Assembly: GCA_964634175.1 (NCBI GenBank)
Contig: CAZWIL010000002.1
Span: 1-49,606, forward strand
Reading direction: 5' to 3'
Source of the DNA: an uncultured Vicinamibacteraceae bacterium
Lineage (GTDB): Bacteria > Acidobacteriota > Vicinamibacteria > Vicinamibacterales > UBA8438
DNA: 49,606 bases
Shown: positions 3,562 to 22,155 of the stretch, piece after piece
Layout: the number at the start of each line of letters is the position of its first letter
Numbering within the stretch: the stretch's first letter is position 1
Notes under the pieces: model-generated
What the model was told of the DNA's origin: nothing
Databases searched by the model: none
Seen by the model: only the letters and a program-made list of their open reading frames with translations
Program-made: the position numbers and the translations under genes

Positions 3562-3570
3562 TGGTAGGAT
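3562..3570 (+). promoter_or_regulatory. Candidate extended -10 (TGgTAGGAT) immediately upstream of the cytochrome c gene
   Basis: The TGnTAnnnT pattern ends 7 nt before the second in-frame ATG (3578). This would give a leaderless or near-leaderless transcript starting at MNRVFVIK. Confidence 0.3.
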
Positions 3571-4384
3571 GCCCGCCATGAATCGAGTGTTCGTAATAAA
3601 GACGTTGAGCAGTCTCTTGGGTTTGACGTTGACGATAGTCGTTGTGACGCAACAATCGCCACTACGCGCTGAGCAAGAACACGCCGGGTCATATGCTCAA
3701 GCAGACATTCAAGTCGGTCTGCGTCTCTACAGTGCCACCTGTACCACCTGCCACGGCCCGAATGGTGACCTCGTGCCAAGCATCGACCTGCGCACGGGCG
3801 AGTTCGAACGCGCACCCTCGGACCCCCAATTAATGGAACTCATCAAGAACGGTATTCCTGGCACTGCGATGCCACCAGGACAATACAGCGACGCCGAATT
3901 AACGGGCCTTGTGGCCTATCTTCGCACCATGGGAGACCTTGATCTCAATGACGCCGCGCGTGGTGACGTGGCGCGAGGTCAAGCACTCTACAACGGCAAG
4001 GGTGATTGCGCGAGTTGTCACCGGATTGGCCAGAGTGGATCACGGCTCGGACCGGATTTAAGTGACGTTGGCGCCAATCGAACTGCAGCCCTTTTGGAAA
4101 ACGCCTTGATTGACCCGACAGGTTCCATGTTTCCGATCAATCGCCCTGTCCGCGTGGTCACCGAAGCCGGCGCATTGTATGAAGGACGTCGGGTCAACGA
4201 AGACACCTACACCGTACAATTGATCGACCAGAATGAACGACTACGCTCTTTAGAGAAATCCTCCATCCGTGAATTTACGGTGATGGACGAATCACCTATG
4301 CCCGCCTACGGAGTCCTGTTTAATTCACAGGAACTATCTGACGTCGTGGCGTACCTGTTGTCGTTACGAGGACTGGAGAACTAG
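3569..4384 (+). CDS. Di-haem c-type cytochrome (second half resembles the PVC-type haem-binding domain), copy 1
   Basis: Signal peptide. Two CxxCH motifs (CTTCHG and CASCHR). The C-terminal module GDCASCHRIGQSGSRLGPDLSDVG...SPMPAY...ELSDVVAYLLSL matches the Pirellula/Verrucomicrobium-type haem-binding domain pattern. The start may be ATG 3578 instead of 3569. The stop lies 4 nt before the PQQ dehydrogenase start. Confidence 0.85.
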   Translation: MPAMNRVFVIKTLSSLLGLTLTIVVVTQQSPLRAEQEHAGSYAQADIQVGLRLYSATCTTCHGPNGDLVPSIDLRTGEFERAPSDPQLMELIKNGIPGTAMPPGQYSDAELTGLVAYLRTMGDLDLNDAARGDVARGQALYNGKGDCASCHRIGQSGSRLGPDLSDVGANRTAALLENALIDPTGSMFPINRPVRVVTEAGALYEGRRVNEDTYTVQLIDQNERLRSLEKSSIREFTVMDESPMPAYGVLFNSQELSDVVAYLLSLRGLEN

Positions 4385-4388
4385 AGGA

Positions 4389-6044
4389 ATGACGCGCCAT
4401 ATCGCACTTGTCACGATCACGGCCCTCCTAGCAGCGCCGGCGCTAGTCGGCGCCCAGGTCACGTACGAACGAATCCTCAATGCGGCAGACGAGCCGGAAA
4501 ACTGGTTGACTTACTCCGGCAGCTACGACAGCCAGCGGCACACCGGACTGGACCAGATTACTGCCGACAATGTGACTGACCTTGAATTGAAATGGGTCCA
4601 TCAAGCGGATTCACTCCAAGCCTTCGAAACAAGTCCTTTGGTTGTAGACGGCATCATGTACCTAACGGAAGCACCCAATACGGTGGTGGCACTCGACGCG
4701 AAGCTTGGGCGGGTGTTTTGGGTCTACGAGTACACGCCGTCGAACGAATCGCGGCCCTGCTGCGGTGCCGTAAATCGCGGGCTCGGAATCTTGGGCGACA
4801 CCCTGTTCATGGCGACCCTCGACGCAAACCTGATCGCGATCGACATCTGGTCCGGTAAACCGATTTGGATGAAAGATGTAGCTGATCCGGAATTGGGATA
4901 TGCGATGACATTGGCCCCGCTTGTCCTAAAAGACAAGGTTGTCGTCGGCGTTGCCGGTGGCGAATACGGCATTCGTGGCTTCATTGCTGCCTTCGATGCC
5001 GACACAGGTGACGAGAGTTGGCGTTTCTACACAATTCCGGGACCAGGCGAACCCGGCCATGAAACGTGGGAAGGCGGAGGGGATGCCTGGGAGCATGGTG
5101 GTGCGCCAGTGTGGCTAACCGGATCCTATGACCCCGAACTCAACCTGACGTATTGGGGCATCGGCAATCCTGGACCTGACTGGAACCCCGAACAACGTCC
5201 CGGTGACAACCTCTACTCTGACTGTGTCGTTGCCCTAGATGCGGACACTGGCGAACTGAAGTGGTATTTCCAGTTTACCCCCAATGACGACTACGACTTC
5301 GATGCCGTGCAAATTCCGGTGTTGGTCGACTACACCTCACCAAACGGTCAGACACTCAAACTGATGCTCTGGGGCAATCGAAACGGCTTCTTTTATGTTC
5401 TCGATCGAGAGGGTGGGCGGTTCGTTTCAGGGAGCCCATACGTCGACGTCAACTGGGCTGAAGGCCTGGATGACAGTGGCCGACCGGTCGAAACACCACA
5501 GCCAGCAGGTTCTCCGACATTTCCTGGGATCTTCGGTGGTACGAATTGGTACTCACCGTCGTATAGCCCCAGTACCGGGTTGTTCTACCTATCCGCCTGG
5601 GAGGCATACGGCGCCATTATGGAGCCGGCTGAAGCCGAGTACCAGCCCGGGCGGATTTTCATGGGTGGCCGCACGCGCCCAACCGGAGTCGCTGGTGCCC
5701 CTCGCCTGCCCGGTCTCGGGCGTGGCCACGTCAACAACTGGACGGCGGAGGCTGGTCGGGGCGCGGTCAAAGCTATCGACCCGACTACTGGCGAAGAAAT
5801 GTGGAAATTCGAGATGACCGACGTCACCACCAGCGGTATCCTGACAACGGCTTCGGATCTCCTGTTTACCGGCGGACGCGAAGGCTACTTTCATGCTCTT
5901 GACGCAACCAATGGTGAACTGCTCTGGAAAACAACGCTGGGCGGCATGATAGCGAATGGTCCAATCGCATATGGAGTCGACGGCAACCAATTCGTGGCCG
6001 TCGCGGCTGGAAATGGCTTGTTCGTATTCGGCCTACGTGAATAG
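4389..6044 (+). CDS. PQQ-dependent alcohol dehydrogenase, methanol/ethanol family, copy 1
   Basis: 551 aa with a signal peptide. Vicinal Cys pair in SRPCCGAVNRGL (TGC TGC 4758..4763), as in the MxaF/XoxF/ExaA ring disulfide. Repeated propeller motifs (GGEYGIRGFIAA, WGIGNPGPDWN, DADTGELKW). Active-site stretch NDDYDFDAVQ. Confidence 0.9.
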   Translation: MTRHIALVTITALLAAPALVGAQVTYERILNAADEPENWLTYSGSYDSQRHTGLDQITADNVTDLELKWVHQADSLQAFETSPLVVDGIMYLTEAPNTVVALDAKLGRVFWVYEYTPSNESRPCCGAVNRGLGILGDTLFMATLDANLIAIDIWSGKPIWMKDVADPELGYAMTLAPLVLKDKVVVGVAGGEYGIRGFIAAFDADTGDESWRFYTIPGPGEPGHETWEGGGDAWEHGGAPVWLTGSYDPELNLTYWGIGNPGPDWNPEQRPGDNLYSDCVVALDADTGELKWYFQFTPNDDYDFDAVQIPVLVDYTSPNGQTLKLMLWGNRNGFFYVLDREGGRFVSGSPYVDVNWAEGLDDSGRPVETPQPAGSPTFPGIFGGTNWYSPSYSPSTGLFYLSAWEAYGAIMEPAEAEYQPGRIFMGGRTRPTGVAGAPRLPGLGRGHVNNWTAEAGRGAVKAIDPTTGEEMWKFEMTDVTTSGILTTASDLLFTGGREGYFHALDATNGELLWKTTLGGMIANGPIAYGVDGNQFVAVAAGNGLFVFGLRE

Positions 6045-6359: not shown

Positions 6360-6390
6360 CTAAAGTGTACGGTGAATGTCAGGAGAGTCC

Positions 6391-7614
6391 ATGCCTAACG
6401 TTGTTCGACGAATCGCTTTCATCGCCGCGGTCGTGGTGGGCGGCAGTCTTTCAGTCGGCGCCGAACAGGCCACGCAAGCGCAATGGGTCACCGCCTGGAG
6501 CACATCCCAGCAAGGACAAGGGAATACTTCCTTGTCCAACGCCACCATTCGGCTGATGGCACGTGTCACAGCGTCCGGCGACGCAATCCGTATCCGCTTA
6601 GACAACAGTTACGGAACCCGGCCGCTCGTCGTAGCGGCGGCGACAGTAGGAGAACCGATGCGTGGTGCAGTACTGAGTCCAGGATCGACTCAACCGATCA
6701 GCTTTGATGGACGAGCTCAAGTCACCATTCCCGTCGGCGGGAGTGTCCAAAGTGACCCCCTCCAGATGCCTGTCCTGTCACAACAGGACCTTGCAATCAG
6801 TCTGCACCTGCCGGAAGCCGATATACGACCCAGTCAGCACAACGGTGCGAGAGTCACATCGTATTTCACGACCAACGGTGCGGGCGACCACACAACCGAC
6901 GAGACTGGGGACGCCTTCGTTGGGACAACCACATCCATGTTTTGGCTAAAATCCATCGACGTACTCAGCCCAACCTCTACCGGAACAATCGTTGCGTTTG
7001 GCGATTCGATCACAGACGGGTCGTGTTCAACCAACGACGGTCATGACCGCTGGGAAGACTGGGTTGCGGTTCGACTGCATTTAGCGGCGATGGACGGGAC
7101 ACACAAGGCAATCATTAATGAAGGTATCGGCGGCAATACGGTCACTGGGAACGTCAGTCCACCACCTTCCAGCACGCCGGGCACAGAACGTCTGGCTCGA
7201 GACGTCCTGTCGCACAGTGGGGTCACGCATGTTGTCCTGTTTATGGGTACCAATGACATCCGTCGAGACTCGACCGCCGCGCAGGTCATTGAGGGCACTC
7301 AGGAGATCATTGACCGCGCACACGCTGCCGGTCTCAAGATTATTGGCGTGACGATCATCCCCCGCCATAATCGGGCGCCTACGGAGAACAACAGCGGCTG
7401 GACACCGGCGAAAACGACAACCAGAAATGAAGTAAATGCGTGGATCAGAAACGAAGCGCCGTTTGATGGTGTCATTGATTTTGATCGCACCGTGCAAGAC
7501 CCGGACGATCCCAATCGGATTCATGCGCCCTTTGATTGTGATGGTATCCATCCCAATCCACGTGGCTACTACGAAATGGGCCTTGCTGTTGGACTGGAAC
7601 TATTTGTCGACTAA
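6391..7614 (+). CDS. SGNH/GDSL hydrolase with an N-terminal beta-sandwich-like domain, secreted
   Basis: SGNH blocks I FGDSITDG, II GIGGNT, III GTND and V DGIHPN. Start taken at ATG 6391 (AGGAG at 6381..6385, 5-nt spacer) rather than ATG 6376. Confidence 0.85.
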   Translation: MPNVVRRIAFIAAVVVGGSLSVGAEQATQAQWVTAWSTSQQGQGNTSLSNATIRLMARVTASGDAIRIRLDNSYGTRPLVVAAATVGEPMRGAVLSPGSTQPISFDGRAQVTIPVGGSVQSDPLQMPVLSQQDLAISLHLPEADIRPSQHNGARVTSYFTTNGAGDHTTDETGDAFVGTTTSMFWLKSIDVLSPTSTGTIVAFGDSITDGSCSTNDGHDRWEDWVAVRLHLAAMDGTHKAIINEGIGGNTVTGNVSPPPSSTPGTERLARDVLSHSGVTHVVLFMGTNDIRRDSTAAQVIEGTQEIIDRAHAAGLKIIGVTIIPRHNRAPTENNSGWTPAKTTTRNEVNAWIRNEAPFDGVIDFDRTVQDPDDPNRIHAPFDCDGIHPNPRGYYEMGLAVGLELFVD

Positions 7615-7636: not shown

Positions 7637-8491
7637 ATGCACAATATGCGCAGACCAGTCGCTCTTGCTTCCCTAGCACTTGGTTTCGTAACACTGATTG
7701 CTGTGAGTGGTCAGCAGAGCGAACCACTCGATATTCAGCAGGTCAAAAACAACCTCTACATGATCACTGGCCCCGGCGGAAACATAGGGGTCCGAGTGAG
7801 TACTGATGGCGTAGTTCTAGTTGACAACAAGTTCGACCGGAATCACGACGCAATCATGAGCGCGGTCCAAAGTGTCACCAGCCAGCCAATCACCTATGTC
7901 ATTGGCACCCATCACCATGGCGACCACATGGGTGGGAATCCGTCATTTTCGACGCACGCCGATATCATCGGGCATCAAAACAACCGTACGAATATGCTGC
8001 GTGGGGACCAACCCGCACCACCGAACATCGTCTTTTCAGATGAGACCGCGGTCTTTCTTGGAGGCGTTGAAGTGCGCGCCTATCATTTTGGTCAGGGACA
8101 CACGAACGGCGATGCAGTGGTTTACTTTCCAGACCTCCGCACTATTCATGGAGGTGACCTGCTGCATGGAACAGCACCCTTTATCGACTACGCCAATGGT
8201 GGCAGTAGCCGGGCCTGGATAACAACACTTGATGCTCTCCTCGAACTCGACTGGGACACGGCGATCCCCGGCCACGGTGCCGTGATGACCCGCAGTGACG
8301 TACAAGACTTCCGGAACCAGATGGTCAGTGTGCGTACTCGCATGTCTGAATTAATCGATGGCGGCGTGTCACGAGAGGACGCACCGACTCGTCTGCGAAC
8401 CAACGAACTCAGCTGGACGGTGGCCGACGAAGGTCTGTTCATGCGGCGAAGTATTCCGGGGTTTTATGATGAAATGTCGGCCGAACGTTGA
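7637..8491 (+). CDS. MBL-fold metallo-hydrolase, secreted
   Basis: Signal peptide plus the GTHHHGDHMGGN metallo-beta-lactamase motif, with downstream His and Asp ligands (GHTNGD, PGHG). Confidence 0.85.
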   Translation: MHNMRRPVALASLALGFVTLIAVSGQQSEPLDIQQVKNNLYMITGPGGNIGVRVSTDGVVLVDNKFDRNHDAIMSAVQSVTSQPITYVIGTHHHGDHMGGNPSFSTHADIIGHQNNRTNMLRGDQPAPPNIVFSDETAVFLGGVEVRAYHFGQGHTNGDAVVYFPDLRTIHGGDLLHGTAPFIDYANGGSSRAWITTLDALLELDWDTAIPGHGAVMTRSDVQDFRNQMVSVRTRMSELIDGGVSREDAPTRLRTNELSWTVADEGLFMRRSIPGFYDEMSAER

Positions 8492-8561: not shown

Positions 8562-9224
8562 ATGATGTCTGTTCAGAATTTCAAATTTGCTTGCATAGCC
8601 TGCATCCTGCCGGGGCTCTTTTTGCAGGCATGTACCCCAAATGCGGAAATAGACCCAGTCGAGTCTCAGACAACATCTGGTTCTCCTCAAACCTCGATTG
8701 CAACAATCGTTGGCCGAGCGCCTGAAGCAGCCGGAGGCACCCGTGCCGTCGTCATTCTTGAACCTCGTGAACCTCTTGATGTTCCCCTCCCGACTGAACC
8801 TGTTGAAATGGACCAATTCGGCCGTGATTTTATTCCACGTCTGATTGTTGTGCGTGCAGGCCAGCCAGTCCTATTCAAGAACAGCGAAGACGAACTCCAC
8901 ACCGTTCACGTTCAAGACGGTAAGGGGCTGTCCTTATTCAACGTGGCTATGCCCATCCAAGGCGGCGAACACGACCATACTTTTGATGACGCGGGAGACT
9001 ACGCCGTATCCTGCAACGCGCATCAAGAGATGCACGCAACCATCGTTGTTGTGGAAAGTCCGTACGCGGTTGTGGCCGACCGAGACGGGACATTCACCTT
9101 GTCAGAGATGCCGCCTGGTAGTTATGACGTAACGCTCAGACAAGGCAATCAACAACACACACAGCTCGTCGAGATCCTAGCCGGAACAAACGAGTTACAA
9201 CTCGACTTTCCATCCACGAGCTAG
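8562..9224 (+). CDS. Cupredoxin (amicyanin-like type-1 copper site) lipoprotein with a C-terminal carboxypeptidase-regulatory-like domain
   Basis: Lipobox-like LFLQAC. AGQPVLFKNSEDELHTVHV ... YAVSCNAHQEMH gives His, then Cys151-x2-His154-x2-Met157 (9012..9032), the same C-x2-H-x2-M loop spacing as amicyanin. The C-terminal DGTFTLSEMPPGSYDVTL is a CarboxypepD_reg-like strand pattern. Confidence 0.65.
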   Translation: MMSVQNFKFACIACILPGLFLQACTPNAEIDPVESQTTSGSPQTSIATIVGRAPEAAGGTRAVVILEPREPLDVPLPTEPVEMDQFGRDFIPRLIVVRAGQPVLFKNSEDELHTVHVQDGKGLSLFNVAMPIQGGEHDHTFDDAGDYAVSCNAHQEMHATIVVVESPYAVVADRDGTFTLSEMPPGSYDVTLRQGNQQHTQLVEILAGTNELQLDFPSTS

Positions 9225-9232
9225 CCACTCCG

Positions 9233-9270
9233 TGTAACCGGACTGTCACATTCCAGGCGTAATCTATATT
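9233..9270 (+). promoter_or_regulatory. Putative Pho box plus -10 for the PhoX-family gene
   Basis: TGTAACC-ggac-TGTCACA (9233..9250): two 7-bp repeats in 11-bp register, close to the E. coli CTGTCAT-type box. After 14 nt comes TATATT (9265..9270). AGGAGA at 9292..9297, ATG at 9307. Confidence 0.55.
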
Positions 9271-9306
9271 TGTAGTAGCCTAGACAGATTCAGGAGACCA
9301 CACTCC

Positions 9307-10842
9307 ATGTCTGATTTCAAACTGTCCGCAAGATCATTCAATCGACGACAGTTTCTGCGAGGCAGTGCAGCGACCGCAGCATCGACTCTCGCGAGTCCCT
9401 TCGGATTTTTGAGCACACAGTTACTCGCAAATCAAACGTTGTGTGGAACACGTGGACCGAGTCCGTATGGCCCCTTGGTTCCTACTCAAGACCAGGCGAC
9501 GGGCCTCTATCTCATCATGTTACCCGCCGGATTCACATACACAACACTCAGCTGGGCCGGCGATACGTTGGACGATGGCAACCCCGTTCCAACCGGCCAC
9601 GACGGAATGGCTGTGGTCGACATGCGAGGACAAGGGAGCACTGCCGAGTACCTGCTTATCCGCAACCAAGAAGTCTTCGGCCTGGGGCAACCAATCGCCT
9701 CAGGATACAACTACGACAATCAGGGCCCCGGTGGTACTACCGTGCTTCGCATACAAAACGGCAGGTTGCTGGAACACCTCGTGAGTCTCTCAGGAACTAG
9801 CGGGAACTGCGCCGGCGGTCCAACGCCGTGGGGCACGTGGCTCACATGCGAAGAAAGAATAATCGTTGGAGATGAACCTCACGGATACGTCTTTGAATCA
9901 ACACTCTCACGAGTCACAACGCCGACCCCACTTCGGCGAATGGGTCGGTTCAAGCACGAGGCTGTCGCGGTTGACCCGAAGACCGGAGGCGTCTACCTCA
10001 CGGAAGATAATTCGAGCAACAATACGGCCCCCGCGTCACGCAACCGCATGCGTGGAAATTCCGGATTCTATTACTTCGACCCAGATGACAAACTGGGAGG
10101 GCTGGGTTCTCTCAATAACGGCGGGACCCTGTATATGCTCCAAGCTCTTCTGCCAAGCACTGACACCGTCGTCGAAGACCTACGAAATCCCGAATGTCTA
10201 TCGGAATATGACGTTAGGTGGGTCGAGATTACGGAACCAGACGCAGACTCGACAGACATTCTGTCCGGCCCGTATATCGAAGGTCGCACGGGAGGAGCCA
10301 CTCGGTTTCAACGATTGGAAGGATGCTGGTGGGACTCGCGGGAAGACCGGGTCGTCTTTGTTGACACCGAAGCGGGACCGGTCTCCGCGCAACCAGATCG
10401 TAACGACCGCGCCGAAGGTGCCGTCTGGTCCTATGACCCGAGGAGTGCATCCCTAACTAACTTGTTTGTATCACGGGGTGCGGAAGCACTATCCGCCTAC
10501 GGCTCTGACAACCCCGACAACGTAGCAGTCAGTCCGCAGGGGGGAATCATCTTGTGCGAAGATGGCGGACAAGACGATGGGAACGGACTGGCTCTCCTAG
10601 GACTCCTGCCCAATGGGCAGACGTTCGAATTTGCTCGGAACATTGTGGAGATAGACAATGGCGACCAGGAAGCACTTTCAACCGCCGGGCACAATCCTGA
10701 TGCCATCGAAACAGGAAATTACAGTGGCCGCGAATGGGCGGGAGCCACGTTTAGCCCAGACGGGCGGTGGCTATTCGTTAACATCCAGAGACCCGGAATC
10801 ACGTTCTGCATAACCGGCCCATGGAGTACGGGGCCTTTTTAG
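9307..10842 (+). CDS. PhoX-family (DUF839) phosphatase-like protein, Tat-exported
   Basis: Twin-arginine signal SFNRRQFLRGSAATAAS. DUF839/PhoX-like beta-propeller motifs (GHDGMAV, CAGGPTPWGTWLTCEE, PDNVAVSPQGGIILCEDG, EWAGATFSPDGRWLFVNIQ). Confidence 0.75.
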   Translation: MSDFKLSARSFNRRQFLRGSAATAASTLASPFGFLSTQLLANQTLCGTRGPSPYGPLVPTQDQATGLYLIMLPAGFTYTTLSWAGDTLDDGNPVPTGHDGMAVVDMRGQGSTAEYLLIRNQEVFGLGQPIASGYNYDNQGPGGTTVLRIQNGRLLEHLVSLSGTSGNCAGGPTPWGTWLTCEERIIVGDEPHGYVFESTLSRVTTPTPLRRMGRFKHEAVAVDPKTGGVYLTEDNSSNNTAPASRNRMRGNSGFYYFDPDDKLGGLGSLNNGGTLYMLQALLPSTDTVVEDLRNPECLSEYDVRWVEITEPDADSTDILSGPYIEGRTGGATRFQRLEGCWWDSREDRVVFVDTEAGPVSAQPDRNDRAEGAVWSYDPRSASLTNLFVSRGAEALSAYGSDNPDNVAVSPQGGIILCEDGGQDDGNGLALLGLLPNGQTFEFARNIVEIDNGDQEALSTAGHNPDAIETGNYSGREWAGATFSPDGRWLFVNIQRPGITFCITGPWSTGPF

Positions 10843-10888
10843 GATAGCGCGGGAGAATCGTCACCTTTGACACACCGAGAGTGCCGAC

Positions 10889-11200
10889 TTAGCTTCGGAT
10901 ACTAGTTTCGGAATCAAGAGCGACGCCCTGGACTACGTCGCTGTCGTTCTCCGTCCCACACACTGCTTGCCCCAAGACGTCCTCAGACATGAAACGGCTT
11001 TCATCATCGGAAGGTCTCCCGCATCGCCAGACGCGGGTCGGTAGCAGATCAATAAGCCACGCGCGGCCACCAGTATGATGTGCCGTATCGTCACAATCTG
11101 GAGACTTTCGACTCACGATTCGCGACACTGTCAATCCGGTTGACGGGTCACGAATAACGGAGGCCGTGCACCCACACCACAATTTTAGTGTATTGCCCAT
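10889..11200 (-). CDS. Hypothetical small Cys-rich protein (doubtful CDS)
   Basis: 103-aa ORF with an ATG start, and the only ORF of 60 aa or more in the gap 10843..11712. The AAGGGG sits directly against the ATG, so the spacing is poor. No recognisable motif. Cys residues at WCGC, PDCDD, WRCG and AVCG. Confidence 0.3.
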   Translation of the reverse strand: MGNTLKLWCGCTASVIRDPSTGLTVSRIVSRKSPDCDDTAHHTGGRAWLIDLLPTRVWRCGRPSDDESRFMSEDVLGQAVCGTENDSDVVQGVALDSETSIRS

Positions 11201-11286
11201 CCCCTTAAGCTATCAGGCAACTGTGTTCCCCACATCACGAGCGTGTTACATCTACGTAAACTTGTCGCCTGGAAAATTTACGAAGT

Positions 11287-11332
11287 CTTAACAGAGGTGT
11301 AACGCAAACGTAACCCTCGTTCTTCATACTTT
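11287..11332 (+). promoter_or_regulatory. Putative triple Pho box plus -10, pointing toward the monooxygenase cluster
   Basis: CTTAACA-gagg-TGTAACG-caaa-CGTAACC (11287..11315): three 7-bp repeats in exact 11-bp register. After 11 nt comes TACTTT (11327..11332). Same repeat class as upstream of pstS, the porin and the PhoX-like gene. Lies ~400 nt upstream of ATG 11713. Confidence 0.5.
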
Positions 11333-13158: not shown

Positions 13159-13198
13159 CGAGGCCCAGAAACGTCGAGAGCGAATAACGGAGGATTGT

Positions 13199-14623: not shown

Positions 14624-15440
14624 AAGAAATACAGTGGTATTTCGTTTTGGACTGAGAAGACTTGTCGCAATCAGTATTGGACTGTGCTTGGCCGTCAGTC
14701 AATACGCGACCCTGCCGTCTCATGCGCAGACCCAGTTTTTTGACGCAGGGCAGGAACGACAGGCGATCTATCCAGCATACGAAGGTTTTACGCGTAATGA
14801 AGATGGGTCATGGACCCTCTCATTCGCATATTTCAGCCACAACTCCACAACTGTCACTATTGCACCAGGCCCCGGGAACTTCTTTGAACCTGGGCAAGGC
14901 GATATCGGTCAACCGACAACATTTCATCCTGGCCATCATCGTTGGGAGTGCATTGTTGTAGTGGACGCCGACTTCGACGGAAACTTGCGTTGGACCCTCT
15001 CCCACGAAGACATCACCACCTCCACGAGCGAATCGATGCTCCAGTACAGTTGGGAATTCAGCGAAAGTGATAAGCGAAACGCGCTGCGGTCGATTGACAA
15101 TCCAACGGCGGTTCCGCGTGGCGTCTGCATCAATCGTCCACCTATTGTTCGAGTGCTCGGATATGGCGGAAGCCGAGGTCCACACGAATTACACATCAAG
15201 GTGGGTGAAGGCCTAAAGCTCTTTGGTAGTGTTCGTGACGAAGGTTTACCGAGGAATGGAACCCTCACATCCTCTTGGACCAAAATGAGCGGTCCTGGAC
15301 AAGTCTCGTTCGATAACGGCACCGAACCTAGGACACTGGCATTCTTTACGGCAGCTGGTGAATATGAGCTCCAACTCACCGGAAACGATTCAGAACTTCA
15401 GAACACCACGACGGTCAAGGTTGTCGTCGCGGCGTCCTAA
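14610..15440 (+). CDS. Secreted hypothetical protein: His-rich N-domain (HPGHHRWEC) plus a C-terminal PKD/Ig-like domain
   Basis: ATGATG at 14610 overlaps the stop of paralogue B (14621..14623) by 14 nt. Signal peptide RRLVAISIGLCLAVSQYATLPSHA-Q. The C-terminal LKLFGSVRDEGLPRNGTLTSSWTKMSGPGQVSFDN...YELQLTGND follows the PKD-like repeat pattern. The start could also be GTG 14583. Confidence 0.6.
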   Translation: MMVSRRNTVVFRFGLRRLVAISIGLCLAVSQYATLPSHAQTQFFDAGQERQAIYPAYEGFTRNEDGSWTLSFAYFSHNSTTVTIAPGPGNFFEPGQGDIGQPTTFHPGHHRWECIVVVDADFDGNLRWTLSHEDITTSTSESMLQYSWEFSESDKRNALRSIDNPTAVPRGVCINRPPIVRVLGYGGSRGPHELHIKVGEGLKLFGSVRDEGLPRNGTLTSSWTKMSGPGQVSFDNGTEPRTLAFFTAAGEYELQLTGNDSELQNTTTVKVVVAAS

Positions 15441-15611: not shown

Positions 15612-16175
15612 CTAACCGCTCACGAGGGCTTGCGAGAGGGCAGCAAGTTTCTCGTCGTTAGCCGGGCCAGTGCTACGCCACGCGATCACCCCATCGGCGT
15701 TGAGCAGCAGTAGGTGGACGTCACTCGTATCCGGAATCGACAGCGCGGTGTTGAACTGCTCGCGGTCGACGTAGATCGTTACTGTGCGCCGCCGGGCGAC
15801 CTGGTCAGTGATTCCAGCGCGCATCCCATTATTGAGCCAGAGGCGAAATAGGGTGGAACCCTCGTAGATGGTTGGCACCTCGTAGAGACGGAGTTCGGGG
15901 TCTTGTGCGAGAAGCGGTTCCACGCCAACGATCCATGTATCTACGACGGGCTGATGTTCGCGTTCGAACGCTACGGCCACCAAGTTTCTGCGACCAGCTA
16001 GACCGGTCGGTAATGAGATCTCCCTGCCCTCTAGATCGATCCCAACAACCTCTGGAAACCTCACTCCCGCCACGCCGCTGGACTGTACCGGAGAGTTAAT
16101 GCCCGCCGGGATACAGCCCGTAAGGGTCAGTGCACCAAGAAGACTACCGACGACGCGTAAAATGATTGACTGCAT
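15612..16175 (-). CDS. Hypothetical lipoprotein
   Basis: 187 aa. Lipobox LTLTGC. AGGAG lies 5 nt upstream of the ATG. No catalytic motif recognised. The thioredoxin-fold-like strand pattern is only a guess. Confidence 0.55.
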   Translation of the reverse strand: MQSIILRVVGSLLGALTLTGCIPAGINSPVQSSGVAGVRFPEVVGIDLEGREISLPTGLAGRRNLVAVAFEREHQPVVDTWIVGVEPLLAQDPELRLYEVPTIYEGSTLFRLWLNNGMRAGITDQVARRRTVTIYVDREQFNTALSIPDTSDVHLLLLNADGVIAWRSTGPANDEKLAALSQALVSG

Positions 16176-16441
16176 CTTGACTCCTGTTGTTATTTAACTA
16201 TAGTGAACATTAATTTAATTATTAAGAACTCGTCAACATGCCTGTTGCTTCCTGAGACAAGAACGGGAGGCTTTTCGACTCAGACTAAAAACGGTGTGAG
16301 GGTGCAGGAGAGAAGCCAGTCGGTTGGATTATTTCTCCAGAATCGACTGCACTTTCCAATGTGGTGATGTTTCTCAGTTGGACACTCTTCAAAAGTCTGA
16401 GTTAGCCTGTCTTGACCGAGTCCCAACTTCAAATCTAAGTC

Positions 16442-17677
16442 ATGGCACAGTGCAACCAAATTGGGTTCAGGCTGGTCGGCCGCCTCATCTGTGGCGTTAC
16501 AGTCAGCTTGGCAGGCTTACTCGTTGTTATCCCACATGAAAACTCAACCATGTGGCAACTGAGCCTGCTCTTGTCGGAGTGGGGCCACTGGCTGGGGCTA
16601 TTGAGTGTGCTCTTGCTTGTTCAATGGCGGCGGTCGTGGGTTCACGCCACCGCGGCAACTTTGACTGCCGCCGGAATTGCCATGCTGTTTTCACCACTGA
16701 CCAGCGCCTATCGCACGACACAAGCGCTGACCAGTACACTCGACGACGCTTTTGGAACTCCGATTTCGACATCCAGCACAAATGCGCCACCCCGTCCTCG
16801 GCCAATCGTTCTCGCAGATCTTTTTTTCGGCGTGTCTACCGAAGACGTTTTAGTCGACGAACACGTGTACGCTGTCAGTGGCGGTGAAAATTTGACCCTC
16901 GATCTCTATAGACCCTTGGTCGGGCTCGAACCGAGGCCAGTGGTTATAGTGATCCACGGCGGAGGATGGACCGCTGGTACAAAACGAGAACTACCGAAAC
17001 TAAATCGATATCTTGCTGCCCGGGGCTACGTTGTTGCCAGTATCGATTATCGTCTCTCACCACGGTGGCGTTTTCCCGTGCCTCAGGAAGATCTGCGCGA
17101 CGCCATCGATTATGTCAAAACGCTGGAAACCACTCACAACATCGATCCTGATCGATTTGCCCTGCTCGGTCGGTCAGCAGGTGGTCAGATTGCGCTCTTG
17201 GAAGGATATTTATCTACTGACCCTTCGATTCGAGGTGTCATTTCACTGTATGGCCCGACTGCAATGCGATGGGGCTACCACTACCCTGCGAAACGGCACG
17301 TCGTGGATTCAACAGCCAGACTCATTGACTACCTAGGCGGTCCACCAAGCACCCATGGCGCACAGTACGACGACGCCGAACCCGCTCGATTTGTGACTCA
17401 GCAATCTCCACCGACCCTTTTCATCCAAGGGCTCAGAGATGAACACGTCGTCCCGTTTCACGTTGATCATGTCAGTGCTCGTCTCATTGACCATAGTGTG
17501 CCGCATGTCATCGTTCGAATGCCGTGGGCTACGCACGGATGCGACTATGTGTTCAGTGGACCTTGCGGGCAGATCTCGACATTCGCCATCGAACGATTCC
17601 TTGGGGCCATCTTACGTGCGCCAAGTAACTCACAAACAAAAGACTCTCCTACGACTGGTAAAGTACTCGTTGAGTAA
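16442..17677 (+). CDS. Alpha/beta hydrolase (esterase/lipase, HGGG type) with an N-terminal membrane-spanning region
   Basis: VVIVIHGGGW oxyanion motif, GRSAGG nucleophile elbow, and a downstream Asp/His region (GLRDEHV, ATHGCD). The first ~90 aa are hydrophobic helices. The start is uncertain. Confidence 0.75.
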   Translation: MAQCNQIGFRLVGRLICGVTVSLAGLLVVIPHENSTMWQLSLLLSEWGHWLGLLSVLLLVQWRRSWVHATAATLTAAGIAMLFSPLTSAYRTTQALTSTLDDAFGTPISTSSTNAPPRPRPIVLADLFFGVSTEDVLVDEHVYAVSGGENLTLDLYRPLVGLEPRPVVIVIHGGGWTAGTKRELPKLNRYLAARGYVVASIDYRLSPRWRFPVPQEDLRDAIDYVKTLETTHNIDPDRFALLGRSAGGQIALLEGYLSTDPSIRGVISLYGPTAMRWGYHYPAKRHVVDSTARLIDYLGGPPSTHGAQYDDAEPARFVTQQSPPTLFIQGLRDEHVVPFHVDHVSARLIDHSVPHVIVRMPWATHGCDYVFSGPCGQISTFAIERFLGAILRAPSNSQTKDSPTTGKVLVE

Positions 17678-17700
17678 CCACCACTAGCTGATTACGAACT

Positions 17701-19095
17701 ATGAGTCTTCATCTAATCGTGCTGCTGTCCTACTCCGGCCTCTTAATGGGACTTGGTGTATGGCTGGGGCGACGTGTCGATAGCTCAGACGGGTTTTTTG
17801 TCGCGGGCCGCCGACTCAGTCCTCTGCTTCTGTTCTCTACCCTGTTGGCAGCAAACATCGGAGCTGGCTCAACTGTCGGTGCCGCCGGCCTTGGGTACCG
17901 AGATGGACTCAGTGCCTGGTGGTGGGTCGGGTCGGCCGGTTTTGGATCACTCATCCTCGCGTTCTGGATCGGACCTCGATTACGCAAACTGGCTAAACTC
18001 CACAACCTTCGAACCTTGGGCGACTTTCTTGAATATCGGTACGGCAAGAGTGTCCGGATTGCCATCGGAATTCTGTTGTGGTTCGGCACGCTTGCAATTC
18101 TGGCAGGTCAGTTAATCGCGATCGCCTGGGTTCTGAATGTAATTACCGGCCTAGAGCACTGGATGGGGTGCATTGTTGGTGGGGTCGTTGTTACGGTCTA
18201 CTTCTCTTCGGGTGGTCTACTAACGACTGTTTGGATCAACCTTCTGCAGTTGGTTCTACTGCTCATTGGCTTTGTTGTGGTTTTCCCACTTGCTCTTATT
18301 GCAGTTGACGGCTGGACTCCAGTCGTTACGACGACTCAACACATCGAGGGTTATTGGAACGTTTGGCAAGGTGGAGGTTCCGGCTGGTTTTATCTTGCGA
18401 TGTTGGGCCCTGCGTTTGTCGTGTCGCCGGGACTACTCCAGAAAGTGTACGGCGCCAGGGACGACCGGACCGTTCGTATTGGTGTTGGTTTGAATGCTGT
18501 CGCACTGCTTGTCTTTGCGGTCATTCCACCGTTGCTCGGTATGATGGCCCGCACCGCATTCCCAGATCTTCAAGATTATGATTTGGCCCTACCCACACTT
18601 CTGATGGACAGTCTCCCACCGCTGGTCGGTGCTCTAGGCCTCGCCGCACTATTTTCAGCAGAGGTTAGTTCAGCCGATGCGATTCTCTTCATGCTCTCCA
18701 CTTCACTCTCACAAGACCTCTATAAAGGCTTTGCACGCCCTACGGCGTCGGACACCGAAGTTCTATCAGTTGCCAGGTGGGCGGCGATTGTTAGCGGTGT
18801 CCTTGGTACCATTGTGGCAATTCTCTCTGAGTCAATCGCCGGAGCACTCTCGTTCTTCTACACCTTGTTAACGGTCAGTCTCTTTGTCCCAGTCATTGGT
18901 GGACTATATCTACGACGTTTCTCTTCCACAGAAGCCTTGGCGTCCATCGCGGGCGGGATCGGCTTAACTGTGCTTGTTCAACTGAATCGAGGAGAACAAG
19001 GTCTGGCTGGATTTACACCAGCCATGTGTGGACTGGTTGGTGCGGGATTGGCCTGGTTCATTGCGTCGCGTTTCAAGACGCAACCAGTGTCCTGA
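17701..19095 (+). CDS. Sodium:solute symporter (SSS) family transporter
   Basis: 464 aa and polytopic. FFVAGRRLSP...ANIGAGSTVGAAGLGY is typical of the SSS N-terminal signature. Confidence 0.8.
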   Translation: MSLHLIVLLSYSGLLMGLGVWLGRRVDSSDGFFVAGRRLSPLLLFSTLLAANIGAGSTVGAAGLGYRDGLSAWWWVGSAGFGSLILAFWIGPRLRKLAKLHNLRTLGDFLEYRYGKSVRIAIGILLWFGTLAILAGQLIAIAWVLNVITGLEHWMGCIVGGVVVTVYFSSGGLLTTVWINLLQLVLLLIGFVVVFPLALIAVDGWTPVVTTTQHIEGYWNVWQGGGSGWFYLAMLGPAFVVSPGLLQKVYGARDDRTVRIGVGLNAVALLVFAVIPPLLGMMARTAFPDLQDYDLALPTLLMDSLPPLVGALGLAALFSAEVSSADAILFMLSTSLSQDLYKGFARPTASDTEVLSVARWAAIVSGVLGTIVAILSESIAGALSFFYTLLTVSLFVPVIGGLYLRRFSSTEALASIAGGIGLTVLVQLNRGEQGLAGFTPAMCGLVGAGLAWFIASRFKTQPVS

Positions 19096-19738
19096 TTCGT
19101 TGTGCCAGTTGGCGAACGGCCGGGGGAATATCCTGCCGACGTATATCACCTGCCGCAGCATAAACGTCCAACCGGTCAAGCTCAGCGGCCAGTCGCACTG
19201 CGAACTCGTCTTGGTCTCTGTCAGCGGCCTCAACTAGACCACTATTCGGAGGACAGGCTCGTACTTCAATATTCTCGAACTGCTGCGCAAAAGTCGCCAC
19301 ACATCGTCGCATGGCAAAGCCCTTGGCCACCAGGATCGCCGTCTGGGGCATTTGATGGCTGCGCTGCAGTACTTCAATCCCCAATCGAACATTTTCGAGT
19401 GTATTCGCAGCGACCGTCTCAGTCAGAATCGCTGACTCAGGAACACCTTTCGATACTAAATAATCTTGAAATACTAAAGCCTCAGGCTTTTCGAATACCC
19501 CTCGGGTCATCCGTCCATAGCTCCCAGTGACAAGCACCCGTGAGGCATAACGGTCGTGATACAGCGACGCAGCTTGGGCCGCCACAGCCAAATCCTGGCT
19601 CCCAAACACAAAGATGACATCGGATGGCCCCGGTGTATCGGCGAGAACCAAATAGTCCCACAATGGTTGAACTAGGCGCCAGAGGTCGTCATTAGACGAC
19701 AGGCTGGCCTCAGTGCGCGGTCTATCGTTCAAGGGCAA
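19073..19738 (-). CDS. DUF218 (YdcF/ElyC-like) domain protein
   Basis: VIFVFGSQD...VLVTGSYG...TVAANTLENV...ILVAKGFAMRRC fits the DUF218 pattern. The only ATG starts (19825, 19774) overlap the upstream PQQ dehydrogenase gene by 104 and 53 nt. TTG codons at 19738 and 19732 would give 17- and 11-nt overlaps. The start is therefore uncertain. The 3' end overlaps the convergent SSS gene by 23 nt. Confidence 0.65.
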   Translation of the reverse strand: MPLNDRPRTEASLSSNDDLWRLVQPLWDYLVLADTPGPSDVIFVFGSQDLAVAAQAASLYHDRYASRVLVTGSYGRMTRGVFEKPEALVFQDYLVSKGVPESAILTETVAANTLENVRLGIEVLQRSHQMPQTAILVAKGFAMRRCVATFAQQFENIEVRACPPNSGLVEAADRDQDEFAVRLAAELDRLDVYAAAGDIRRQDIPPAVRQLAQRIRTLVAS

Positions 19739-21356
19739 ATACGAAGAGTCCGTTCCCAGCAGCCACGGCCACATACTGTCTGCCGTCGACAGCATAGGTA
19801 ATTGGACCATTCGCAATCTGGCCACCTAAACTTCTCTTCCAGAGCAACGCACCCGACCCGGCATCGAGTGCTTGAAAGTGCCCTTCCCGTCCACCGCTAA
19901 ACAAAAGATTTGAGCTGGTGGTCAGGATCCCACTTGTCGTGACGTCGGTCATCTCAAATCGCCAACGCTCTTCACCATTACTGGGATCGATCGCGATCAC
20001 CGCACCACGCCCGGCCGCTTCCGTCCAATTATTCACCGGACCACGGCCAAGCGGCGGCATTTCACCGAGGTCCACGGTCCCCCCGCCAAAGTTCTGACCC
20101 GGCTGATACACCGATTCGGCGGGTGTGAAGACCGTGCCATAGCCCTCCCACGTCGGAACATAAAAGAGTCGTGTGCTCGGGCTGTAGGACGGCGAATACC
20201 AGTTTGTCCCACCCGAGACACCGGGATAAGTAACGGCCCCAGGCGGCTGCGGTGTCTGGACCGGACGTCCGTTGTCGTCAAGTCCGTCAGCCCAGTTAAC
20301 GTCAACAAATGGTTGACCATTGATAAATCGACCGGTCTCTCGGTTGAGCACGTAGAAAAATCCGTTCCGATTAGCCCACAGCATGAGCTTGAGCGTACTT
20401 CCATCATTTGCCGGATAGTCGACAAGGACCGGTATCTGTACCGAATCGTAGTCGTATGGATCGTTAGGCGTGAACTGGAAATGCCACTTGAGCTCACCAG
20501 AGTCCGCATCCAGCGCCACCACAGAATCGGAATAAAGATTGTCACCCAACCGCTGAGCCGGGTTGAAATCTGGACCAGGGTTTCCGGTGCCCCAGTAGAT
20601 AAGGTTGAGGTCACTGTCATACGACCCGGTCAGCCAAGTCGCACTGCCGCCGTGCTCCCAAGCGTCGCTGTCGCTTGGCCACGTGTCATGACCTGGCTCT
20701 CCCGGTCCTGGAATGGTATGAAAACGCCATGCTTCGTCGCCGCTTTCAGCGTAATACGCAGCAATGAATCCCCGGATACCATATTCGCCACCAGCCACTC
20801 CAACGACGATTTTATCCTTCACTACAAGCGGCGCCAACGTCATGGCATACCCAATAGCCGGGTCCGCGACCAACGTCTTCCAAATGGGTCGTCCCGTGAC
20901 CGAATCGATCGCAATCAGCTGCGCATCGATGGTCGCCATAAAAAGCGTCTCACCAAGAATCGCCAAACCGCGATTAACGCGACCGCAGCAGGGTCGAGAC
21001 TCCAGTGACGGAACGTGTTCATAGATCCAGAAGACCCGTCCCGTCCTCGCATCCAGAGCAACCACGGTATTTGGTGCTTCGGTGAGATACATGATTCCAT
21101 CGACAACGAGCGGAGTCGTCTCGAACACCTGAAGTGACTGTGCCTGAAAGACCCACTCCAGCTCTAGCTCACTGACGTTCTCTGGGGTGACCTGTTCAAG
21201 TCGGCTGTGTCGTTCGCCAGAATTGGTTCCGGAATACGTCAACCAATTCTGTGGTTCTTGATCGGCCGCAAGTAGCCGTTCGAAGGTCACCTGCGCGGTA
21301 ACGTCAGAAAGGCATGCAACGGCGAGACTAAGTGCGACAAGCGTAGTTCGAACCAT
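19722..21356 (-). CDS. PQQ-dependent alcohol dehydrogenase, methanol/ethanol family, copy 2
   Basis: 544 aa and collinear with copy 1. Roughly three quarters of aligned residues are identical by eye, while third codon positions differ widely. SRPCCGRVNRGL vicinal Cys pair. Active-site stretch NDPYDYDSVQ. Confidence 0.9.
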   Translation of the reverse strand: MVRTTLVALSLAVACLSDVTAQVTFERLLAADQEPQNWLTYSGTNSGERHSRLEQVTPENVSELELEWVFQAQSLQVFETTPLVVDGIMYLTEAPNTVVALDARTGRVFWIYEHVPSLESRPCCGRVNRGLAILGETLFMATIDAQLIAIDSVTGRPIWKTLVADPAIGYAMTLAPLVVKDKIVVGVAGGEYGIRGFIAAYYAESGDEAWRFHTIPGPGEPGHDTWPSDSDAWEHGGSATWLTGSYDSDLNLIYWGTGNPGPDFNPAQRLGDNLYSDSVVALDADSGELKWHFQFTPNDPYDYDSVQIPVLVDYPANDGSTLKLMLWANRNGFFYVLNRETGRFINGQPFVDVNWADGLDDNGRPVQTPQPPGAVTYPGVSGGTNWYSPSYSPSTRLFYVPTWEGYGTVFTPAESVYQPGQNFGGGTVDLGEMPPLGRGPVNNWTEAAGRGAVIAIDPSNGEERWRFEMTDVTTSGILTTSSNLLFSGGREGHFQALDAGSGALLWKRSLGGQIANGPITYAVDGRQYVAVAAGNGLFVFALER

Positions 21357-21360
21357 GACG

Positions 21361-22155
21361 TTACATCCCTTTCAGCATCAACAAGTACGCGAGCACGTCT
21401 GCCCGTTCCTCTGCGGTAAGTGTTTCTTCGTAGGATGGCATCGGTGACGTGGTCAAGATGGTAAATTCACGAAGATCAGCTTTATCCAGTGACACTAGGC
21501 GCTCGTTGGCGTCGACAAGTTGGATGCTGTAGGTATCTTCGTTTAACCGACGCCCCTGGATAATGGTTCCGTCCCGCGTAACGAGTCGGACTGGTCGGTT
21601 GGTCGGTCGCATCGCCGCTGTCGGGTCAAGTAGTACCTGTTCGAGTGACCCGGCACTCCGGGTAGTTCCGATGGCACTCAGATCGGGTGCCGCTCTGGGG
21701 CCAACACCATTAACACGATGGCAGCTGGAGCACTCACCTTTACCTCTGAACAATTCTTCGCCGCGACCGGCATCACCGAGCGCCACACTGTCAAGGTCGT
21801 AGGTGGCCATGTTACGAAGATAGGCGACTAGTCCAGCTAATTCTGATTGTGTAAAGCTAGCCGGCGGCATCGCCGTTCCTGGAATGCCGGTGGTAATAAG
21901 TCTCGTGATCTCGGAATCCGTCGCCACGCGGCGAAACTGGCCGTCGCGCAAATTCACACCGACGACCATGTCTCCAGCAATGCCATGGCACCGGGTACAG
22001 TTCGCTTCATACAGTTGAGCTCCGTGCTCCACATCAGCTCGCAAATACTGTCCCACGTGGTCTTGTGCATCGACCTGGCCGCACACCCCAACCAGTAATA
22101 GCAGTAGCGACACACTCACCCTACGAGCGAGTCGATAGAAACGAGAGTTCTTCAT
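21361..22155 (-). CDS. Di-haem c-type cytochrome, copy 2
   Basis: 264 aa with a signal peptide. CTRCHG and CSSCHR. Same PVC-type C-terminal module (SPMPSY...ADVLAYLLMLKG). GGAGAG SD lies upstream. Same gene order as copy 1 (cytochrome then dehydrogenase, 4-nt gap). Confidence 0.85.
   Translation of the reverse strand: MKNSRFYRLARRVSVSLLLLLVGVCGQVDAQDHVGQYLRADVEHGAQLYEANCTRCHGIAGDMVVGVNLRDGQFRRVATDSEITRLITTGIPGTAMPPASFTQSELAGLVAYLRNMATYDLDSVALGDAGRGEELFRGKGECSSCHRVNGVGPRAAPDLSAIGTTRSAGSLEQVLLDPTAAMRPTNRPVRLVTRDGTIIQGRRLNEDTYSIQLVDANERLVSLDKADLREFTILTTSPMPSYEETLTAEERADVLAYLLMLKGM

Follow-up and report, generated by a model that had tools for sequence, protein, structure and literature searches.

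A putative haem-fused, PHM-like copper monooxygenase family and its recurrent association with lanthanide-type PQQ dehydrogenases at a mosaic locus of a marine Vicinamibacteraceae

Why should two copies of a cytochrome c and pyrroloquinoline quinone (PQQ)-dependent alcohol dehydrogenase (PQQ-ADH) cassette face each other across 13.7 kb of a bacterial chromosome? This arrangement occurs in a stretch of 49,606 nucleotides, here called the window, from the chromosome of an uncultured marine Vicinamibacteraceae bacterium (Acidobacteriota). A first-pass annotation of the window had read the bracketed genes as one redox and hydrolase neighbourhood, in which the dehydrogenases, their cytochromes and possibly a cupredoxin feed electrons to two haem-copper monooxygenase-like proteins, MO1 and MO2. 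Our comparison with related loci suggests that the cassettes themselves are ordinary, and that the interest of the locus would lie in a haem-fused PHM-like family and in its repeated association with lanthanide-type PQQ dehydrogenases. We give roughly even chances to the reading that two diverged cassettes edge a plastic zone, that their bracket is incidental, and that the MO module between them is facultatively coupled to PQQ-ADH. Loci are designated by L numbers; an MO-anchored profile scan of genomes gave 80 of them, nearly all from Acidobacteriota/Vicinamibacteria. The conspecific contigs L001, L002 (98% identical) and L098 share the full arrangement of the window.

Cassette A (3569–6044, +) consists of cytC_A (3569–4384, +), an exported dihaem c-type cytochrome and presumed electron acceptor of the enzyme encoded next to it, and PQQ_A (4389–6044, +), a soluble periplasmic PQQ-ADH of the methanol/ethanol family. 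Cassette B (22155–19722, −) consists of cytC_B (21361–22155, −), the dihaem c-type cytochrome partner of the second dehydrogenase, and PQQ_B (19722–21356, −), a further lanthanide-type PQQ-ADH from an orthogroup other than that of PQQ_A. These open reading frames (ORFs) were exactly as first annotated, as were the spacers of 4 nt between cytochrome and dehydrogenase genes, which read TAG-AGGA-ATG in cassette A and TAA-CGTC-ATG in cassette B.

The two cassettes were aligned at the protein and nucleotide levels. PQQ_A and PQQ_B share 71% of protein, 66% of nucleotide and 36% of third-position residues, with a saturated synonymous divergence (pS 0.81). cytC_A and cytC_B are 49–52% identical as proteins and 56% as nucleotides, with a pS of 0.77 that is beyond saturation. 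An earlier estimate by eye that three quarters of the residues are identical was close for the dehydrogenases and too high for the cytochromes and for the whole cassette, where identity was ~65%. The inverted nucleotide similarity (71–74%) was restricted to coding regions.

Each cassette also has closer relatives elsewhere than its counterpart in the window. Among 120 database homologues of PQQ_A, 112 were nearer to A (best 91%, the same protein being 72% identical to B) and 8 nearer to B (best 84%, the same protein being 72% identical to A). A metagenome contig carried a PQQ_B orthologue at 96% and a cytC_B orthologue at 92% identity, and PQQ_B orthologues at 84–96% identity were only ~72% identical to PQQ_A. 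Orthologues of cytC_A (55–70% identity) lie directly upstream of PQQ_A orthologues, and cytC_B is 92% identical to its counterpart in L103/104 and 64% in L088/89. We therefore assigned the cassettes to separate orthogroups, with no duplication in place. Because a cytochrome gene was found immediately upstream of the dehydrogenase gene in 63 of the 70 metagenome loci with room for one, the dihaem cytochrome and PQQ-ADH genes form a family-wide two-gene operon. The cassettes thus go back to an ancient divergence and represent two separate copies of a two-gene operon that is widespread, in keeping with the first-pass description of old paralogues.

The inverted orientation and the identical gene order and spacing might also be expected of a recent inverted duplication, of the arms of a composite mobile element or of an assembly artefact. 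We attach next to no credence to this explanation. Synonymous sites are saturated, nucleotide identity is as low as 56–66%, and each copy has closer orthologues in other genomes; moreover, L001, L002 and L098 were assembled independently with the same arrangement. None of the window ORFs of at least 150 aa contained a transposase or integrase domain, as the first-pass annotation had reported. A composite transposon or recent inverted duplication was accordingly rejected on the coding-only similarity of the 56–66% identical arms, a pS of 0.77–0.81 and the lack of any mobile-element domain in these ORFs.

Both dehydrogenases passed the curated cut-off of TIGR03075 (PQQ-dependent dehydrogenase, methanol/ethanol family; 480.05 bits), with 536.1 bits for PQQ_A and 538.7 bits for PQQ_B and an alignment spanning model positions 3–529 of 530. 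Their closest PDB structures were the quinoprotein ethanol dehydrogenase 6zcv/6zcw (1e-102 for PQQ_A), which we take to be PedH, followed by type II ADHs and XoxF (6dam). The vicinal Cys pair, Glu, Asn and Asp-x-Asp residues align with those of 6zcv, and the GGEYG, GNPGP and PCCG motifs are kept. At the Asp-x-Asp position PQQ_A has YDFDA and PQQ_B has YDYDS, compared with WDFDG in 6zcv/6zcw and DFT in the Ca-type enzyme 1kv9. Asp-x-Asp was present in 117 of the 120 PQQ_A homologues and is taken as diagnostic of lanthanide binding (PMC11996626). Judged by these residues, PQQ_A and PQQ_B carry a lanthanide-type Asp-x-Asp metal site. Assignment to the type II quinohaemoprotein ADHs was rejected, as the proteins (551 and 544 aa) have no CxxCH motif and the propeller alignment reaches their ends.

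The cassette cytochromes are predicted to be exported and are ~265 aa long with two haem motifs, the CxxCH motifs lying at residues 58 and 147 of cytC_A and 53 and 142 of cytC_B. cytC_A matched the Pfam families Cytochrome_CBB3 and Cytochrom_C, and the C-terminal haem domain of both proteins exceeded the TIGR02603 cut-off of 68.15 bits (77.7 bits for cytC_A and 81.4 bits for cytC_B). Two identities were tried and rejected, namely cytochrome cL (MxaG/XoxG), on a TIGR03872 score of 20–24 bits against a cut-off of 147.8, and cytochrome c550 (PedF/ExaB), on a TIGR04494 score of ~21 bits against 122.

The nearest described systems are PedH/PedE-PedF of Pseudomonas putida, ExaA-ExaB of P. aeruginosa and XoxF-XoxG(-XoxJ) of methylotrophs, each pairing a dehydrogenase with a dedicated c-type cytochrome. 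The window dehydrogenases resemble them in the eight-bladed PQQ propeller of the methanol/ethanol family, in the vicinal Cys pair, the Glu/Asn/Asp metal ligands and the extra Asp of the lanthanide enzymes, and in having the gene of a periplasmic c-type cytochrome acceptor alongside. In contrast, the window cytochrome is a dihaem protein of ~265 aa whose second domain is of the TIGR02603 type rather than cL or c550, its gene lies upstream of the dehydrogenase gene, and the host is an acidobacterium. The window also contains no XoxJ/MxaJ, pqq or lanthanide-uptake genes. No pqq biosynthesis genes were found within the window, and aquatic Vicinamibacteria are reported to import PQQ via PqqU (PMC12124388).

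Whether the bracketed 13.7 kb works as one neighbourhood, as first proposed, was examined through the gene content of relatives. Five loci with MO proteins 80–89% identical to those of the window (L003–L007) have no cassettes, MBL (a metallo-beta-lactamase-fold hydrolase) or PhoX-like gene. The order in L003, and partly in L004, is M20 peptidase, SGNH hydrolase, cupredoxin, MO, MO partner, esterase, sodium:solute symporter (SSS), DUF218 and amidase; of these genes L005–L007 keep just MO, partner, esterase, DUF218 and amidase. L004 carries a glycogen operon (GlgX, MalQ, GlgB, GlgC) at the site of the PhoX-like gene. L103/104, with proteins ~90% identical, carry M20, SGNH, MBL, cupredoxin, PhoX-like, SSS, DUF218, PQQ_B, cytC_B, amidase, GerM and RNase PH, with cassette B (96%) at the same site and without cassette A, MO, partner or esterase. 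In L094/95, at 62–76% identity, M20 is followed by cytC and PQQ_A (76%), then by MBL (74%) and cupredoxin (62%), and then by an MO block, in which an inverted pair of MO paralogue and partner precedes the esterase and SSS genes.

Since relatives carry such different subsets of modules, the zone from M20 to the amidase is mosaic. Cassettes A and B, the MO module, MBL and the PhoX-like gene are independently present or absent, and between the two conserved anchors each module has its own history of gain and loss. A conserved-cluster test found the full inter-cassette gene set only in the conspecific L001, L002 and L098. The inverted bracket is an accident of this species and neither a structural nor a regulatory unit, and the view of the bracketed segment as one functional neighbourhood did not hold.

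The cassettes also occur outside this zone, and their orthologues are often free-standing. A-type orthologues were found in L082–84 (beside a block of GGT, SLT and DeoC genes), L090/91 and L092/93. B-type orthologues in L088/89/97 (~9200–14180) are preceded by STAS, SpoIIE and response-regulator genes and followed by the gene of an 816-aa PSCyt3/PSD2-5 protein (planctomycete-type cytochrome); cassette B of the window has neither set of neighbours. In L085 a B-type cassette stands among transposases. Transposases or integrases were seen beside some cassette orthologues (L085, L088/89 and L094/95), and this adjacency suggests that the cassettes are mobile. The block of GGT, SLT-TPR and DeoC genes is at 44788–49599 of the window, 40 kb from cassette A. 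In L082 it occupies 16212–21653 and is separated by only ~4.5 kb from the orthologue of cassette A, so that a chromosomal rearrangement must distinguish these relatives.

What, then, are the MO proteins within the mosaic zone? As judged from its sequence relatives, MO1 (11713–13158, +) is an exported protein that joins a cytochrome c domain to a copper monooxygenase core of the PHM/DBH-like kind, and MO2 (13199–14623, +) is its tandem paralogue, 64% identical and with the same motifs. A tandem MO pair is also found in L004. In 67 diverse relatives of MO1 (31–43% identity), the residues C51xxC54H55, M87, H195, H196, H257, H369 and H371 were invariant, and M451 was at least 90% conserved. A profile of the family matched DBH (4zel, 2.7e-11) and PHM (~4e-10) in the PDB, covering both halves of the catalytic core. 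In the profile alignment the HH, H, HxH and M of MO stand in register with the VHH, VHY, HTH and DEM of PHM, which hold the CuH and CuM ligands. The Pfam family Cu2_monoox_C was matched by 43 of the 67 relatives at E ≤ 0.1 (best 3.3e-7); a window MO alone reached 13.4 bits against a cut-off of 23. With MO1 alone a PDB search was empty, and MO1 and MO2 singly matched only weak cytochrome c models. The haem and copper ligands are also kept in the MO paralogues of L013, L086, L094 and L117. These data support the assignment of MO1 and MO2 as putative haem c-containing, PHM/DBH-like binuclear copper monooxygenases, and the label of haem-copper monooxygenase given in the first pass is consistent with a CxxCH motif joined to a predicted core with all six copper ligands.

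Like PHM, DBH and tyramine beta-monooxygenase, MO keeps the six copper ligands (His-His...His and His-x-His...Met), in register. Unlike PHM and DBH, it is bacterial and exported, falls below the Pfam thresholds and is accompanied by an immunoglobulin-like (Ig)/PKD partner, and an N-terminal c-type haem replaces ascorbate or cytochrome b561 as the likely point of electron entry. Non-coupled binuclear copper monooxygenases such as PHM and DBH are treated as eukaryotic, ascorbate-driven enzymes. PHM is stated by a recent survey to be widespread in eukaryotes (PMC8812541). The bacterial family found here is large. More than 6,000 close homologues of MO are labelled 'hypothetical' or 'cytochrome c', and the superfamily contains 15,030 clusters at 50% identity with E ≤ 1e-3, of which 1,865 have E ≤ 1e-30. 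No literature description or solved structure of a cytochrome c-PHM-like family was found.

In its relatives the MO core is joined to a range of other domains. An N-terminal AhpC/TSA redoxin is common and hints at a thiol-based electron or peroxide route. A GDSL hydrolase is fused C-terminally in P0234 and an alpha/beta-hydrolase esterase in P0246; hydrolases of the same two kinds, SGNH and alpha/beta, belong to the conserved backbone of the window. The conserved and fused esterases point to an ester-bearing organic compound as a candidate substrate of MO. Further fusions include a tandem double MO, a BamB-like propeller (P0249), EF-hands and TPR repeats, and P0121, P0135 and P0223 are also among the fusion-bearing relatives. 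The C-terminal propeller of P0249 was considered as a Rosetta stone for coupling to PQQ and rejected, for it is short and BamB-like (PQQ_2), not a dehydrogenase.

MO is accompanied by a partner gene (14610–15440, + in the window), which encodes an exported protein of two tandem Ig-like beta-sandwiches. The partner gene adjoins MO in nearly all of the 80 genome loci and in L087, L094 and L117, either divergently upstream or downstream, and MO paralogues are accompanied by partner paralogues. The partner is the sole near-universal neighbour of MO, and the two together form the real conserved core of the locus. An AlphaFold model of the partner (pLDDT 88) shows an N-domain of unknown type followed by a PKD domain, the two tandem sandwiches. 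PDB comparison gave only generic Ig/PKD matches, with no functional lead. The N-domain contains the invariant residues H77, H110, C114 and C173 (motif PGHHRWxC), which could possibly form a metal site or a disulfide; this would make the partner a candidate copper chaperone or substrate adaptor of MO.

Association of MO with PQQ dehydrogenases was sought around both MO-anchored and PQQ-anchored loci, with proximity counts for the MO-anchored set covering the fetched flank of each locus. In L117 a PQQ-DH (PQQ dehydrogenase, 652 aa) gene heads a one-strand string that continues with MO, its partner, cytC and a PQQ-ADH gene whose product shares 63% identity with PQQ_A; the successive gaps are 154, 0, 46 and 8 nt. 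Another pair of partner and MO comes after it, and the layout is the mirror image of the window. In L086/87, cytC and PQQ_A (84%) are followed by MO 130 nt downstream (hhalign E 5.5e-81). In L010, L013 and L021, MO is followed by a PQQ-ADH with a fused cytochrome c and then by paralogues of MO and of the partner. In a soil clade of 26 loci, the gene after MO, or after an optional CarboxypepD_reg gene next to it, encodes a soluble 660-aa PQQ-DH of the glucose/sorbose type, and an MBL mostly comes next. These ~26 loci lie within L043–L081 (for example L045 9977–14279 and L061 9878–16342) and are mostly annotated as Acidobacteriota; the partner gene stands ahead of MO on the opposite (−) strand, the optional CarboxypepD_reg protein is 714 aa long, and the hydrolase is a Lactamase_B_3 protein in most.

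In the MO-anchored set, the PQQ genes near MO were downstream on the same strand in 31 of 33 cases, and the MO members of PQQ-linked loci all keep the haem and copper ligands. MO members thus stand in operon-like strings with three PQQ dehydrogenase subfamilies in several lineages. A co-occurrence of PQQ dehydrogenase and MO confined to this genome would have contradicted the first-pass proposal; instead, it was also found in L117, L086/87, L094/95, L010/13/21 and the ~26-locus clade.

Several results weigh against the reading of facultative coupling. Forty-eight of the 80 MO-anchored loci, including the five closest non-conspecific relatives, have no PQQ gene in the fetched flank. Conversely, five of the eight cassette-anchored contexts (L082–84, L092/93, L085, L088/89/97 and L096) have no MO within 10 kb, and MO was found in only 3 of 22 long metagenome loci, from which the source-like contig had been left out. 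Cassette B orthologues and MO were seen together in this species only. Marine Acidobacteria carry up to 70 lanthanide-dependent PQQ-DH genes per genome (PMC11996626), and L096 (3061–21152) packs four PQQ dehydrogenase genes into 21 kb. Because these genomes are so rich in PQQ genes, two PQQ operons within 18 kb are not unusual in themselves. MO paralogues have multiplied too, so that chance proximity is not negligible, and many of the loci that link MO to PQQ genes are of common ancestry. In addition, a predicted structure of MO from a two-sequence alignment reached a pLDDT of 31 and was unusable.

Alternatively, the genes could be coincidental neighbours. The cassettes would then be stand-alone periplasmic alcohol-oxidation operons that feed only the respiratory chain, and they would lie near MO because the lineage has very many PQQ-DH genes and the zone gathers genes for exported enzymes. 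This is a serious competitor, although we hold it to be clearly less probable than even. It is favoured by the orthologous cassettes without MO in the five unrelated contexts listed above, and by the reciprocal pattern in which L103/104 have cassette B without MO and L003–L007 have MO without cassettes. The mosaic zone, with its glycogen operon in L004, fits as well. Between the cassettes there are at least six transcription units, separated by gaps of 331 and 870 nt and by three strand switches. However, coincidence accounts poorly for the tight co-directional strings in which MO stands with PQQ dehydrogenases of three subfamilies; L117, L086/87, L010/13/21 and the soil clade provide at least four arrangements unrelated to one another. 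It accounts equally poorly for L094/95, where cassette A is kept together with MBL, cupredoxin, MO, esterase and SSS at only 62–76% protein identity. Coupling of MO to PQQ-ADH is therefore read as plausible and probably facultative, on the strength of these gene arrangements.

Such coupling could operate as follows. PQQ-ADHs hand two electrons per alcohol to a c-type cytochrome, and for each hydroxylation a PHM-type enzyme must receive two electrons at CuH. Each PQQ-ADH of the window would oxidise a periplasmic alcohol and, like the enzymes of the Ped, Exa and Xox systems, reduce a cytochrome of its own. MO, without an ascorbate system, would take two electrons per turnover through its N-terminal haem c from the periplasmic pool of c-type cytochromes, for which the cytochromes of the PQQ-ADHs would be the likeliest local donors. 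The dehydrogenase may in turn oxidise the alcohol product of MO, giving a redox-balanced relay. This coupling would be facultative, and the cassettes would also work alone, feeding respiration. The electron loop first proposed is in part supported by these comparisons, and we infer that electrons may flow from the cytochromes to the MO haem.

The strictest form of that loop would be an obligate, closed periplasmic circuit in which both cassettes, and possibly the cupredoxin, recycle the electrons of the product alcohol to the MO haem and the whole 13.7 kb is one system. Its stoichiometry fits, since the two electrons needed for each hydroxylation equal the two released for each alcohol oxidised; MO has no other visible reductant, and the linkage of MO to PQQ genes recurs. 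Nevertheless we consider a closed loop improbable. Its parts are inherited separately from one another, a link between cassette B and MO was seen in this species only, and the cupredoxin persists in L103, which lacks MO. The PhoX-like, SSS and DUF218 proteins have no evident role in such a loop, and the PhoX-like protein fits better with the Pho/Pst genes of the window. Many MO family members instead bear an AhpC/TSA redoxin at the N-terminus, which hints at other electron routes.

Rather unlikely, though somewhat less so than a closed loop, is a broader proposal of undescribed periplasmic C-H oxidation. Here an ascorbate-independent, cytochrome c-fused PHM-like MO with its Ig/PKD partner would be fed by a lanthanide-dependent PQQ-ADH and a dihaem cytochrome, which would recover electrons from the alcohol product of MO itself. 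The result would be a self-priming relay, widespread in Acidobacteriota of soil and ocean.

Facultative coupling of this kind has partial parallels in known systems. Electron recycling from methanol dehydrogenase to pMMO has been proposed in methanotrophs and is debated. In that proposal, as here, what the copper monooxygenase produces would be oxidised by a PQQ dehydrogenase, from whose cytochrome electrons could flow back. Unlike pMMO, an unrelated membrane enzyme, the window MO is predicted to be soluble and PHM-like and to have its own haem c. In fungal systems that activate lytic polysaccharide monooxygenases (LPMOs), a b-type haem sits on the dehydrogenase. In the window, by contrast, a c-type haem is on the monooxygenase and a separate dihaem cytochrome is encoded beside the dehydrogenase. 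LPMOs also differ from MO in being mononuclear histidine-brace enzymes that are not PHM-like. LPMOs are activated by cytochrome-bearing dehydrogenases, namely cellobiose dehydrogenase and the PQQ-dependent pyranose dehydrogenase CcPDH. The likeness lies in the latter, a PQQ dehydrogenase that feeds an extracytoplasmic copper monooxygenase and has been shown to reduce these fungal copper enzymes (PMC5987398).

The remaining genes between and beside the cassettes were assigned from domain matches. At the left edge, an M20/M28 peptidase (2027–3507, +; Pfam Peptidase_M20 and M20_dimer) forms the conserved boundary of the variable zone and is kept beside it in L001, L003, L094/95, L098 and L103. 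Downstream of cassette A lie an exported SGNH/GDSL hydrolase (6376–7614, +; Pfam Lipase_GDSL_2), kept in L003, L004 and L103, and the exported MBL (7637–8491, +; Pfam Lactamase_B), which is 74% identical in L094/95 and 90% in L103. The best NCBIfam match of the MBL was TIGR04559 ('quinoprotein relay system zinc metallohydrolase 2') at 83 bits. In the 'quinoprotein relay system' (TIGR04558/TIGR04559) an MBL-fold hydrolase is likewise found close to a PQQ-ADH and cytochrome pair, but the window protein is far below the TIGR04559 cut-off of 280 bits and so is no member. The MBL beside the 660-aa PQQ-DH of the soil clade belongs to a different family, Lactamase_B_3, unlike the window MBL.

The cupredoxin (8562–9224, +; Pfam Copper-bind and Cupredoxin_1) has a C-terminal CarboxypepD_reg domain and a type-1 copper-like pattern, His...Cys-x2-His-x2-Met. 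It is kept in L003, L004, L094/95 and L103, the last of these without MO. The PhoX-family protein that follows (9307–10842, +; Pfam PhoX 3.4e-67 and TAT_signal) is Tat-exported. A Pho-type cluster at 25967–33747 encodes a PAS histidine kinase, an OmpR-type regulator, PstB, PstA, PstC, PstS and a porin. Because these Pst/Pho genes supply a phosphate context, we set the PhoX-like protein apart from the redox genes; it is probably a phosphate-scavenging phosphatase outside the redox module. Upstream of MO1 is a stretch of 870 nt without a recognisable gene (10843–11712). No convincing ORF, Rfam match, consensus promoter or terminator was found in it, and the gene caller left the equivalent stretch of L001 empty; the stretch may have a regulatory function or be the remains of a gene. 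Over the whole window Rfam gave no match, and a promoter and terminator scan did not beat shuffled sequence.

Beyond the partner gene, a small lipoprotein (15612–16175, −) with an LTGC lipobox is lineage-specific and was seen in L001 only; its faint Pfam hints (ATP10 and Rng_hyd_C) give no functional lead. A membrane-anchored alpha/beta-hydrolase esterase (16442–17677, +; Pfam BD-FAE/Abhydrolase_3 and NCBIfam lipase/esterase matches) adjoins MO and partner in L003–L007 and L094/95. The SSS family transporter (17701–19095, +; Pfam SSF) has eight hydrophobic segments and lies near MO in many Vicinamibacterales loci. A DUF218 protein (19073–19774, −; Pfam DUF218), called from L001, has no signal peptide; its gene lies downstream of PQQ_B, overlaps the 3′ end of PQQ_B, and is present in L003–L007 without the cassette. 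On the right, an N-acetylmuramoyl-L-alanine amidase (22332–23951, +; Pfam Amidase_3) forms the conserved boundary, followed by GerM and RNase PH, and this block is kept in L003–L006 and L104. Farther off, at 39865–42139, the gene of a 510-aa Nramp-like membrane protein adjoins that of a chlorite-dismutase-family (Cld/HemQ-like) protein.

The first-pass gene list for the segment was confirmed in the main. It had missed the DUF218 gene, the cupredoxin lipobox it listed (LQAC) is non-canonical, and the start of MO2 is most likely at 13199. Its description of nearly all intervening proteins as export-signalled also stood in large part; in a crude hydrophobicity and motif script run on 15 proteins, 13 had N-terminal hydrophobic or membrane segments and the PhoX-like protein had a Tat motif, whereas the DUF218 protein had no such signal.

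Herein, our comparisons suggest that a family regarded as eukaryotic has a bacterial branch, represented by MO, which keeps every copper ligand and carries a c-type haem of its own. The family is large and uncharacterised, with no name and no Pfam entry of its own beyond weak matches to cytochrome c models and Cu2_monoox_C. Its haem domain implies another way of delivering electrons than ascorbate. Its repeated linkage to lanthanide-type PQQ dehydrogenases, to cytochromes and to esterases suggests that abundant Acidobacteriota may oxidise organic matter by a route not yet described. If this is true, lanthanide enzymes would gain a role beyond methanol and ethanol.

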